Source: Candidatus Nomurabacteria bacterium RIFCSPHIGHO2_01_FULL_39_10
Lineage (GTDB): Bacteria > Patescibacteriota > Minisyncoccia > Phycocordibacterales > UBA9973
Length of the DNA stretch: 32,298 bases
Direction: 5' to 3'
NCBI GenBank assembly: GCA_001786805.1
Contig: MFTJ01000009.1
Coordinates: 13,263 to 45,560, forward strand
Shown: positions 21,143 to 23,706 of the stretch, one piece after another
Layout of the letters: each line of letters starts with the position of its first letter
Position numbering within the stretch: position 1 is the first letter of the stretch
Translations under genes and position numbers: made by a program
Notes under the pieces: generated by a model
The model's input: only the letters and a program-made list of their open reading frames with translations
Databases searched by the model: none
What the model was told of the DNA's origin: nothing

Positions 21143-21226
21143 GCCGGGATGGCGGAATTGGTAGACGCGATAGACTCAAAATCTATTGATGGCAACATCA
21201 TGAGAGTTCGATTCTCTCTCCCGGCA
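21143..21226 (+). tRNA. tRNA-Leu (anticodon CAA), class II with long variable arm
   Basis: Acceptor GCCGGGA/TCCCGGC, anticodon arm ATAGA-CTCAAAA-TCTAT, variable stem GATG/CATC, T arm GAGAG-TTCGATT-CTCTC, discriminator A. No CCA is encoded. Confidence 0.9.
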
Positions 21227-21236
21227 CAAAAACATA

Positions 21237-21266
21237 CCCCATACTAAGCTTCGCTCTAGTATGGGG
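21237..21266. promoter_or_regulatory. 10-bp-stem hairpin/palindrome between tRNA-Leu and the HTH-MurA gene (terminator or operator)
   Basis: CCCCATACTA - 10 nt - TAGTATGGGG, with an extra AGC/GCT pairing in the loop. No T-tract follows. Confidence 0.4.
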
Positions 21267-21282
21267 CTATCCACACTTGCAT

Positions 21283-21300
21283 TATCTCATATATGAGATA
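21283..21300. promoter_or_regulatory. perfect 18-bp AT-rich palindrome overlapping the first ATG of the HTH-MurA ORF; candidate operator
   Basis: TATCTCATA|TATGAGATA covers the ATG at 21293. A second in-frame ATG lies at 21311. Confidence 0.35.
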
Positions 21301-22840
21301 TACTGTTTATATGATAAAACAAGTAAAAGAAACCGAACAAGAGAAGATAGGATTTTTTATAAAGGAATTACGGGAACACCGAGGCATGACTCAGGAAGAG
21401 TTTGCTAAAGCGCTTGGTACTTCCCAGAGTTCTGTTCCCCGTATGGAAAAGGGCGAACAGAATTTTACAACCGAACTGCTCCTGAAAATCAGCGATGTTC
21501 TTAACCACAAGATAGTTTCGGTGAATGATTCCATTGATTTTCAAGTTAATGGCGGAAAAAAACTAAGCGGAACTATCAAAACAAATTTCTCAAAGAATGG
21601 TTCCGTCGGGCTTCTTTGCGCTTCGCTCTTAAATAGCGGGACGACGACGCTTCATGGTATCGCCCGGATAGAAGAAGTGTATAGAGTGATAGAAATTTTA
21701 GAAAGCATAGGAGTAATAGTAAAATGGCTGAGCCAGAATACAGTGCAAATTATGCCGCCGGAAAAGTTTACACTAGATAAAATAAATATTGTTTCGGCGA
21801 TTAAAACTCGCTCAATAATTATGCTGGCGGGTCCACTCATACACAAATTATCTTCTTTCTCTATCCCCCACGCTTATGGCTGTAATTTGGGCAAAAGAAC
21901 AATATCGGCGCACACTTACGCGCTTGAAGAAGTAGGCATAAAAATAAAAACAACAAACAAGAGTTACGAAGTTAGCGCAAAAAAATTAAAGTCAGCAAAA
22001 AATATAGTGATGTATGAGACAGGAGAAACTGCTTGTGAAAATATTCTGTTTGCCGCCACTTTGATTCCGGGCGAAACCACCATCAGCTTCATGAGCAACA
22101 ATTATATGGTGCAGGAAATCTGTTTCTTCTTGGAAGCATTAGGCGTGAAAATAGACGGCATAGGCACTTCCACCTTGACTGTGCACGGAGTTGAAGAAAT
22201 AAATAAAGATGTGGAGTATTCAAATAGTGAGGACCCGATAGAATCCATGATGTTTATTTCTGCCGGAATCGTGACTGATTCGCATATCACTATCACCCGA
22301 GCGCCAATAGACTTTCTTTCTCTAGAGATGGAAAAACTGAAAAGGATGGGTCTGAAATATAAAATTTCTAAAATTTATTGTTCATATAATGGCAGAACGA
22401 AGCTGGCTGACATAGAAATTTTCCCGAGCAGATTAAAAGCTTTACAGGATAAAATACACGCAAATATATATCCGGGAATAAATATAGATAACCTTCCTTT
22501 CTTTGTGCCGATTGCTATAAAAGCAAAAGGTCAGACGATGATTCACGATTGGTATTATGAAAACCGCGCTATATATTTGACAGAATTAAACCGTCTAGGA
22601 GCGGAAATCACTCTAGCCGACCCGCATCGGCTCTATATTCAGGGCGGTACTCCGCTCAAGCCCGCGCAGGTCGTCTGCCCGCCCGCCCTGCGTCCTTCGA
22701 TGGTGATACTCATTTCCATGCTGGGAGCAAGCGGTACCTCTATTCTACGCAATGTGTATATGATAAACCGCGGATATGAAGAAATTGCAGAGCGCTTAAA
22801 CTCTATCGGCGCGGATATTAAAATAATAAAGGGAAACTAA
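21293..22840 (+). CDS. murA: XRE-family HTH domain fused to a MurA-like UDP-GlcNAc 1-carboxyvinyltransferase domain
   Basis: The N-terminal ~70 aa are FIKELREHRGMTQEEFAKALGTSQSSVPRMEKGEQNFTTELLLKISDVL (XRE/Cro HTH). The remainder aligns by eye to MurA, with Lys22 (FSKNG), Arg91 (KTRS), Cys115-Arg120 (YGCNLGKRT), Asp305 (NIDN), Arg371 (ENRA), Arg397 (ALRPS) and the terminal NRGYE..I..L..GA block retained. The likely start is 21311. Confidence 0.8.
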   Translation: MRYTVYMIKQVKETEQEKIGFFIKELREHRGMTQEEFAKALGTSQSSVPRMEKGEQNFTTELLLKISDVLNHKIVSVNDSIDFQVNGGKKLSGTIKTNFSKNGSVGLLCASLLNSGTTTLHGIARIEEVYRVIEILESIGVIVKWLSQNTVQIMPPEKFTLDKINIVSAIKTRSIIMLAGPLIHKLSSFSIPHAYGCNLGKRTISAHTYALEEVGIKIKTTNKSYEVSAKKLKSAKNIVMYETGETACENILFAATLIPGETTISFMSNNYMVQEICFFLEALGVKIDGIGTSTLTVHGVEEINKDVEYSNSEDPIESMMFISAGIVTDSHITITRAPIDFLSLEMEKLKRMGLKYKISKIYCSYNGRTKLADIEIFPSRLKALQDKIHANIYPGINIDNLPFFVPIAIKAKGQTMIHDWYYENRAIYLTELNRLGAEITLADPHRLYIQGGTPLKPAQVVCPPALRPSMVILISMLGASGTSILRNVYMINRGYEEIAERLNSIGADIKIIKGN

Positions 22841-23706
22841 TGTCAAAGAGACACTTTGACAAGCCTAAAGTTATCGTAATTATGGGGCAGACTGCTACGG
22901 GTAAAAGCGCGCTGGCTGTAAAAATTGCCAAAAAAATTGGCGGAGAAATAATTTCGGCTGATTCAAGGCAGGTTTATAAGGGGCTTGATATCGGTACTGG
23001 AAAAATATTTACAAAAGAGATGAAGGGAATTTCCCATTATTTAATTGATATAGAAAGTCCAAAAAATAAATTTACGGCGGCTCAATTTAAAGAACTCGCT
23101 GAAGAAAAAATTAAAGAAATAATAGCTCGCGGTAAAACTCCAATCATCTGCGGAGGCACGGGATTTTATATTGATGCTATAACTAAAGGCGTTGTCTTCC
23201 CAGAAGTTCCGCCAAACTATCCACTTCGCAAGAAATTAGCATTAGCAAACGACCGCGCACTAATGCTGAAACTCAAAAAAATTGACCCCGAACGCGCAAA
23301 AAACATAGACCCAAAAAACAAAGTGAGGCTTATTCGCGCGATTGAGATAGCGAAAGCTTTAGGTAAAGTCCCCCACTTGGCGGTTAAACCGCCAAGTTAT
23401 AAATTTATTAAGATAGGCCTCTATTTGCCCGCCGAAAAGCTCAAAAAGAAAGTAGCAAAAAGAGTGAAAAAAATGTTTAATCCGCCAGCTGGCGGAGGCT
23501 TGCTGGATGAAATCAAAAAATTAAAAAAATCTGGTGTGTCAGACAAAAGACTAAAAGAACTGGGTTTTGAATACTACAAACCTACGCAAGAAAAAGTGAT
23601 TAATGGAACCATGCAATATGCCAAGCGGCAAATGACGTGGTTCAAGCGCGACAAAGAAATAAAATGGCTTAATGCGTCAAAAATTACAAAGGATTACCCT
23701 CTGTAA
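22840..23706 (+). CDS. miaA: tRNA dimethylallyltransferase
   Basis: P-loop GQTATGKSALAV followed by IISADSRQVYKGLDIGTGK. The start overlaps the murA-like stop (TAATG). Confidence 0.92.
   Translation: MSKRHFDKPKVIVIMGQTATGKSALAVKIAKKIGGEIISADSRQVYKGLDIGTGKIFTKEMKGISHYLIDIESPKNKFTAAQFKELAEEKIKEIIARGKTPIICGGTGFYIDAITKGVVFPEVPPNYPLRKKLALANDRALMLKLKKIDPERAKNIDPKNKVRLIRAIEIAKALGKVPHLAVKPPSYKFIKIGLYLPAEKLKKKVAKRVKKMFNPPAGGGLLDEIKKLKKSGVSDKRLKELGFEYYKPTQEKVINGTMQYAKRQMTWFKRDKEIKWLNASKITKDYPL
23375..23397. repeat. perfect 23-bp palindrome in frame inside miaA
   Basis: ACTTGGCGGTT-A-AACCGCCAAGT shares the core GCGGTTNAACCGC with the topA/parB units. It is translated as HLAVKPPS. Confidence 0.85.
23481..23496. 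repeat. family-C perfect 16-bp palindrome in frame inside miaA (encodes PPAGG)
   Basis: TCCGCCAGCTGGCGGA matches the dus copy at 15 of 16 positions, and both are read as CCG CCA GCN GGC GGA. Confidence 0.8.

Follow-up and report, generated by a model that had tools for sequence, protein, structure and literature searches.

A MurA-type enolpyruvyl transferase fused to an XRE helix-turn-helix domain, with a candidate operator in its own promoter, in Candidatus Nomurabacteria

We analyzed a stretch of 32,298 nucleotides (hereafter the window) from Candidatus Nomurabacteria bacterium RIFCSPHIGHO2_01_FULL_39_10 (GenBank assembly GCA_001786805.1, contig MFTJ01000009.1, positions 13,263 to 45,560 of the forward strand). 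Coordinates below are those of the window. An open frame at 21293..22840 on the plus strand (515 aa from ATG 21293, the most upstream start; 509 aa from the likelier start ATG 21311, coding sequence 21311..22840 with stop included) encodes an N-terminal XRE-type helix-turn-helix (HTH) domain joined to a MurA body. We conclude, with a probability of roughly 70%, that this protein, HTH-MurA, is an active MurA that represses its own promoter. The C-terminal 430 residues would be a working MurA, the UDP-N-acetylglucosamine (UDP-GlcNAc) enolpyruvyl transferase that catalyzes the first committed step in building the cell wall, and the only one of the organism. The N-terminal HTH, as a dimer, would bind the 16-bp dyad ATCTCA-TATA-TGAGAT in the gene's own promoter, and HTH-MurA on this operator, covering the spacer and the -10 box, would shut off its own gene. 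Four points were computed directly: the domain architecture, the intact active site, the absence of a second MurA, and the joint occurrence of HTH and operator in different lineages and phyla. A first-pass annotation of this DNA had offered two possibilities, an enzyme that autoregulates and a transcription factor that uses the MurA fold as a sensor. The former is favored here, with the HTH conserved, the own-promoter dyad co-occurring with it across two phyla, the catalytic residues intact and no second MurA in the genome.

The Pfam model HTH_3 (PF01381) matched residues 23-71 of the 515-aa frame (21359..21505, plus strand) with an E value of 3e-14 and 53.2 bits, against a gathering cut-off of 23. 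The recognition-helix region reads TSQSSVPRMEKGEQN, and its motif TSQSA..R.E was nearly invariant across orthologues at 50% overall identity. PF00275 matched residues 85-502 (E 8e-41), and the NCBIfam MurA models covered residues 83-512 end to end; the cut-off of the MurA subfamily model NF006873 was narrowly passed (304.8 bits vs. 297). A sequence search of the PDB returned MurA proteins as the best solved relatives throughout, with E values down to 6e-51, and NikO and AroA were far weaker. An AlphaFold (AF2) model built on an alignment of 43 orthologues reached a predicted local distance difference test score (pLDDT) of 91.6 and a predicted template modeling score (pTM) of 0.83. It consists of a four-helix HTH bundle (helices 9-23, 28-35, 41-46, and 54-64 in the 509-aa numbering, pLDDT 87-92), a low-confidence linker and the MurA body. 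The linker (21506..21538; pLDDT ∼72, below 50 at residues 70-72) is probably a flexible tether. The body (21539..22828) has the two-domain inside-out alpha/beta barrel fold of canonical MurA (E. coli and Enterobacter cloacae, PDB 1UAE and 1NAW). It superposed on solved MurA structures in Foldseek with template modeling (TM) scores of 0.90-0.92, and the top 43 Foldseek matches were MurA entries throughout (TM on the target 0.85-0.92).

Alignment with E. coli MurA (murA of MG1655, L071:4236-5495:-) indicated that K22, N23, R91, C115, R120, D231, D305, E329, R331, R371, and R397 are all kept, as K101, N102, R173, C197, R202, D314, D399, E423, R425, R467, and R493, respectively, in the 515-aa numbering. 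The codon for the catalytic-loop cysteine (E. coli Cys115) lies at 21881..21883; the loop had a low pLDDT, as expected for the mobile loop of MurA. HTH-MurA differs from canonical MurA in the extra 75-residue N-terminal XRE HTH and linker, in an identity of only ∼25-37%, in the changes D49E, V163D, E188N, and D369P, and in an 11-residue insert (356-366 in the 509-aa form). Judged by fold, active site and apparent pathway position, with HTH-MurA the only MurA beside MurB, the protein is a MurA, though a divergent one that scores below the strict equivalog level. The canonical Cro/C1-type HTH and the MurA body with its catalytic and ligand residues, both recognized by eye in the first-pass annotation, were thus borne out by the domain models, the AF2 helical bundle and the alignment.

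Two PF00275 genes were found in the 870-kb assembly, HTH-MurA and an AroA-AroK fusion on contig C7. On the equivalog model TIGR01072 they scored 296.7 and 74 bits, respectively, and nothing else matched. A second, canonical murA, for which the first-pass annotation had advised a check, was not found in this genome: the other PF00275 gene was considered for that role and rejected as an AroA-AroK fusion in a shikimate cluster. MurB and the Mur ligases are present. Among the 67 other genomes that carry a protein of the same clade (defined below), MurB was found in 65 and an ordinary MurA in none. In five genomes the extra PF00275 match was AroA, recognized by its PGSKS..R motif; the others were a single degenerate MurA-like copy and a single fragment. 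The extra genes of family f24 had been candidates for MurA and were set aside as AroA. Two genomes of the window's genus, both listed as 100% complete, yielded no other type of murA.

Two observations on PF00275 relatives are recorded here. The AroA-AroK fusion (5-enolpyruvylshikimate-3-phosphate synthase plus shikimate kinase; 605 aa; L001 943..2760, minus strand, from G000:C7, outside the window) clusters with aroE, aroQ, and genes resembling anthranilate or para-aminobenzoate synthase. Shikimate-pathway genes are unexpected in so small a genome, and the estimated contamination of the assembly is 4%. In another genome, a second, very divergent MurA-like open reading frame (ORF; L084, G028:C4:58093-59886; 104 bits on PF00275) has no equivalents of K22, N23, R91, C115, R120, R331, R371, and R397 and may encode a pseudo-enzyme.

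The candidate operator is an 18-bp perfect palindrome, TATCTCATATATGAGATA, at 21283..21300 (16-bp core at 21284-21299), which sits within the promoter spacer and reaches into the -10 box. The promoter elements were read from the sequence on the plus strand: a -35-like hexamer TTGCAT at 21277..21282, with three of six consensus matches (orthologues mostly have TTGACA), and a -10 hexamer TATACT at 21299..21304, which ends 6 nt before ATG 21311. A consensus promoter scan missed this -10 box because the -35 element is weak. Repression is the proposed direction of control because the dyad sits in the spacer and over the -10 box. Upstream of HTH-bearing orthologues a family motif, ATATCA-N4-TGATAT, recurs, usually after TTGACA and with a right arm that makes up an extended -10 element, TGATATAAT. 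Both arms of the window's copy carry a mirror-image change relative to the family consensus. The exact operator occurs once in the 870-kb genome, and the one-mismatch sites of this genome are all inside long ORFs.

When the motif was counted as present at two or fewer mismatches within 150 nt upstream, it was found in 35 of 44 HTH-bearing loci and in one of 24 HTH-less loci, the latter an apparent remnant. The same threshold gave 33 hits in 1292 background windows from the same loci (2.6%); exact sites were rare, at one in 1292. Relatives are not independent, so we turned to phylogenetically independent contrasts, with nine pairs on well-supported branches. The operator tracked the HTH in ∼7.4 of these and opposed it in 0.5 (median sign-test p ∼0.03). 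In four loci the recognition helix has diverged from TSQSA..R.E, and the consensus site was absent from all four. No strict rule of covariation was found between operator position 3 (A or C) and recognition-helix residues. For a purely computational case we consider the operator evidence strong.

In most orthologues 9-14 nt separate the end of the operator from the start codon, which places the -10 box 6-11 nt from the ATG. The murA mRNA of the window should therefore be leaderless or nearly so, since its -10 box ends so close to ATG 21311. HTH-less clade loci (L056, L057, L063, and others) also have a TATAAT-like box 7-10 nt before the murA ATG; leaderless murA expression thus seems to be a general trait of the clade, independent of the operator.

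Matches to HTH-MurA in 401 sampled Patescibacteria genomes were bimodal. The clade protein was present in 68 genomes (46-100% identity, at least 415 bits), and the remaining sampled genomes carried ordinary MurA (30-37% identity, at most 250 bits). All 11 catalytic and ligand residues listed above were invariant in the 68 clade members. The fusion with the HTH was found in 44 of the 68; 24 were without it. The clade was monophyletic (support 100) when its tree was rooted with ordinary MurA. Its basal lineages have no HTH, and the crown group of 56 comprises 44 members with the domain and 12 without. To account for HTH presence on this tree, a minimum of 9-11 changes is required, and the simplest history is a single gain followed by about ten losses. 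One of these losses falls within the window's genus, in G284: it shares the synteny relA/spoT, parB, tRNA-Leu, murA, miaA, and the alignment indicated that it is without one block of ∼270 nt that holds the hairpin, the promoter, the operator palindrome and the HTH codons, so that its murA begins 7 nt past tRNA-Leu. The five HTH-less genomes searched yielded no close stand-alone HTH copy. A split form, with the HTH as a separate gene, was considered for G261 and rejected, as the XRE gene upstream belongs to a toxin-antitoxin-like pair. This pair (L019 1-1048), directly upstream of the HTH-less murA, comprises a small RelE/HigB-like ORF and an XRE-HTH protein of 225 aa whose C-terminal domain is long; the XRE protein is unrelated to the fused HTH (33% identity).

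The fusion was in frame in the 44 sampled Patescibacteria, in more than 100 database clusters and in 12 of 301 sampled Actinomycetota. A scan of named genomes returned at least 597 relatives, which occur in Nomurabacteria, Paceibacterota, Zambryskibacteria, Taylorbacteria, Uhrbacteria, Doudnabacteria, and Saccharibacteria (including Nanosynbacter). A record titled Bdellovibrionales bacterium (L180, a contig of 33% GC) contains an HTH-less clade member that groups with Patescibacteria (G261 and G167) and is probably a mis-binned contig.

The carriers in Actinomycetota include Streptomyces rimosus, S. bohaiensis, S. lonarensis, and Knoellia subterranea (the cross-phylum set is L128-L219, with L203 and L208 from S. 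rimosus, L204 from K. subterranea, and L187 and L192 from Nanosynbacter). ATCTCA-N4-TGAGAT, the same variant as the window's copy, was found 8-12 nt before the HTH-MurA ATG in 11 of the 12 actinobacterial loci. Without a function, conservation of this AT-rich dyad in genomes of 65-71% GC would be difficult to account for. Besides the fusion, the Streptomyces carriers encode an ordinary MurA (∼433 bits on TIGR01072), which makes the fusion a second MurA copy there; in Knoellia only the fused type was found, with no ordinary MurA. In a FastTree phylogeny the actinobacterial sequences formed one clade (support 99) nested in a Saccharibacteria subclade (support 100). The nesting suggests that the module moved from the epibiotic Saccharibacteria to their host phylum, a direction that is tentative because composition bias was flagged for the high-GC rows. 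An equation of the Streptomyces copy with S. coelicolor SCO5998 (MurA2) was considered but not adopted: the published SigB-dependent SCO5998 promoter is without the operator (PMC8346170), and the S. rimosus synteny at the fusion differs from SCO5998-SCO5999.

An HTH that reads a dyad would be expected to act as a dimer, and a homodimer was predicted for residues 10-509 with our own alignment. The score was 0.58 vs. 0.01 for the best control; of the benchmark proteins, 20 of the 30 solved as same-chain pairs and one of the 23 solved as single chains reached the score mark, counts that hold only roughly here given our own alignment. The dimer runs agreed in at least 92% of contacts, with a partner pLDDT of at least 86. 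The predicted symmetric interface lies in the MurA body (199, 203, 233-237, 259-260, 286-288, 337-345, 378-389, 412, 414, and 436-440 in the 509-aa form). It spans both lobes and touches residues beside the substrate cleft (equivalents of E. coli 123, 157-161, and 324-326). Interface residues such as W414, H439, and R440 are equally conserved in HTH-less members, so the predicted dimer, if real, predates the fusion. Such a pre-existing dimer would let an added HTH read a dyad at once.

Titles of solved structures indicate that MurA can hold UDP-N-acetylmuramic acid (UDP-MurNAc) together with the phosphoenolpyruvate (PEP) adduct. As the predicted interface adjoins the cleft in which such ligands are held, ligand-dependent DNA binding is conceivable. 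That substrate or product (UDP-GlcNAc, PEP, or UDP-MurNAc) bound to the MurA body modulates DNA binding is speculative. A broader scheme joins this idea to the transfer between phyla. In it, the ligand-driven transition between open and closed MurA would alter dimer geometry and operator occupancy, such that transcription of murA, and in some lineages of murB, would track precursor pools like a homeostat with no separate sensor; the module would also have passed from Saccharibacteria to Streptomyces and other Actinomycetota and persisted there as a second, self-regulated MurA. We offer this combination tentatively and think it rather doubtful as a whole.

From the observations above we infer enzyme activity, DNA binding, repression, and the dimeric state of HTH-MurA. 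Several findings pull the other way. About ten losses of the HTH with no apparent harm mean that the control is dispensable. Nine of the 44 HTH-bearing loci have no good operator site. The right half-site coincides with an extended -10 element, so the promoter accounts for some of its conservation, and evidence independent of the promoter comes from the left arm and the dyad symmetry only. The dimer interface is no better conserved in members with the HTH than in those without, and many MurA crystal entries are multi-chain, so that the dimer pass may reflect memory of crystal packing. On the enzyme side, the equivalog TIGR01072 was missed (296.5 bits vs. a cut-off of 392.7), and there are clade-specific changes near the UDP-GlcNAc site (V163D, E188N, D369P, P121T, and S162G). 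The assembly is 92% complete, and a murA could have been missed, for this assembly alone. Finally, one of the murB sites described next is placed where repression is not implied.

The HTH could bind the palindrome and activate, or it could serve a wider regulon as a pathway or global regulator. In four genomes of four families the operator was also found at murB. The exact site overlaps the murB ATG in G028 and lies upstream of the -35 element in G329, the position just mentioned; in G263 a one-mismatch site covers the extended -10 element 9 nt before the ATG, and in G265 divergent murA and murB have in common a single site in the gap of ∼40 nt between them. Exact sites also overlap the start of rplL in two genera. 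No operator site was found near murB of the window's genome, where the exact site is unique and the near-matches are all intragenic. Scans for exact sites in five genomes gave one to three each, and one-mismatch counts in 39 genomes were close to those of a reversed-pattern control. Together with the usual position of the site, in the spacer and over the -10 box, which is that of a repressor, these counts make a wider or activating role unlikely in our view. The rplL-linked sites (ATATCAGCCATGATAT over the start codon, MADI...; L088 ∼1501-1516, i.e., G263:C1:189060, and G383:C1:990249) may be a by-product of the coding sequence or real sites.

We consider it improbable that the protein is a transcription factor with a MurA-derived ligand sensor and no MurA activity, the second possibility of the first-pass annotation. 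The precedent is BzdR, an XRE regulator whose enzyme-family domain shows that enzymes can become effector domains (PMC3602430). The fused HTH resembles the BzdR-type N-terminal domain (NF006015, E 2e-6), and the low equivalog score and the substitutions around the UDP-sugar site could be read in the same direction. However, the catalytic and PEP-binding residues are invariant across 68 genomes, and none of these genomes has another MurA, yet MurB is present in 65 of 67 as well as in the window's genome. HTH-less clade members appear as ordinary stand-alone enzymes with the same residues.

Very little weight is given to the view that the HTH is a passenger, kept for protein-protein contact or as a neutral remnant, and that the palindrome is an unusually symmetric promoter. 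The repeated losses of the domain and the double role of the right arm would fit it. It does not account for a nearly invariant recognition-helix motif at 50% overall identity, nor for the left arm, which has no promoter role and is kept in 35 of 44 loci and gone in 23 of 24 HTH-less ones; the AT-rich dyad preserved in high-GC genomes and the diverged-helix loci without a site also speak against it. Least probable of all is a MurA-like body that enolpyruvylates another acceptor, as NikO does with uridine monophosphate, and is not a peptidoglycan enzyme: the clade stands well apart from ordinary MurA (30-37% identity), is changed at V163, E188, and D369, and has NikO as a detectable relative (E 1e-16), but it is far nearer MurA than NikO (177 vs. 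64 bits), is the only candidate to feed MurB in these genomes, and is tied to murB by the operator in some of them.

The locus itself needs a few comments on the reading that HTH-MurA controls its own gene. The first-pass annotation described the frame 21293-22840 correctly, except that ATG 21311, which the gene callers also picked, is the likelier start; ATG 21293 is unlikely to be used because it lies in the center of the palindrome and precedes the -10 box. The possible refutation named there, translation that truly begins after the HTH, does not hold. The HTH is conserved in frame in dozens of genomes, and those close relatives that are without it have lost the promoter palindrome as well. 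Downstream, miaA (tRNA dimethylallyltransferase; 22840..23706, plus strand; Pfam IPPT PF01715, E 4e-58) overlaps the murA stop with its start (TAATG), so the two genes are probably co-transcribed. The overlap proposed earlier as translational coupling is real, and the arrangement is confined to the window's genus: murA-miaA synteny was seen only in G284 and G256. Linkage to miaA or parB as part of the system was rejected for the same reason, as the synteny holds only within the genus. The upstream neighbor is tRNA-Leu(CAA) (21143..21227, plus strand, by ARAGORN). Between it and the murA promoter lies a hairpin with a 12-bp stem (21236..21267), which had a terminator-like score only when read on the minus strand, although no gene on that strand requires a terminator here. 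It may be a tRNA terminator, an insulator, or a second protein site.

Among known proteins that combine an enzyme with DNA binding, BirA (biotin protein ligase and bio-operon repressor) has a winged HTH, unlike the XRE HTH of HTH-MurA. BirA represses a biosynthetic operon and not its own gene, and its dimerization depends on the reaction intermediate. In its logic of an enzyme with its own DNA-binding domain, HTH-MurA is like BirA (PMC6391492), PutA, and NadR. The archaeal riboflavin kinase and regulator RbkR is likewise a single polypeptide with metabolic activity whose DNA-binding domain acts on genes of the same pathway (PMC5397151). PutA, NadR, and RbkR differ from HTH-MurA in DNA-binding fold, pathway, and enzyme fold, and none acts in peptidoglycan synthesis. 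With trigger enzymes HTH-MurA would share own-pathway targets, judging from the sites at murA and, in four genomes, at murB.

By domain type the nearest protein is BzdR of Azoarcus sp. CIB, with an XRE HTH, a linker, and an enzyme-family domain; its shikimate-kinase-like domain has lost catalysis and only binds the effector benzoyl-CoA (PMC3602430). In contrast, the enzyme domain of HTH-MurA looks fully catalytic. With its catalytic residues intact and as the sole MurA, HTH-MurA is not a member of the BzdR subfamily; it is closer to the synthetic bifunctional intermediate Q1 of the same work than to BzdR itself. Known control of MurA works at the level of the protein, by way of partner proteins. 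The MurAA and MurAB enzymes of Firmicutes, for example, are regulated through PASTA-kinase signaling, by inhibition or degradation by such partners (PMC12077105), whereas HTH-MurA is proposed to act on its own promoter. XRE regulators often control their own genes and, as dimers, recognize palindromic sites (PMC12565409). HTH_3 has been tabulated as a "promiscuous" domain occurring with PF00275 in 218 proteins, with no interpretation (PMC9394408). A literature search, with subscription journals outside its coverage, found no published description of an HTH-MurA regulator.

If HTH-MurA is indeed a self-repressing MurA, cell-wall synthesis would have a new and highly compact control, in which the enzyme senses at its promoter how much of it is present and perhaps whether ligand is bound. 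Patescibacteria, with their minimal genomes and few regulators, would be well served by such self-control. Both fusion and operator are found in Streptomyces that can be cultured and genetically manipulated, and also in Nanosynbacter-type Saccharibacteria, which makes the idea directly testable, and the repeated joint loss of HTH and operator provides natural controls. HTH-MurA would also be a natural example of the stage with an enzyme plus a DNA-binding domain that has been proposed for regulators evolving from enzymes (PMC3602430).

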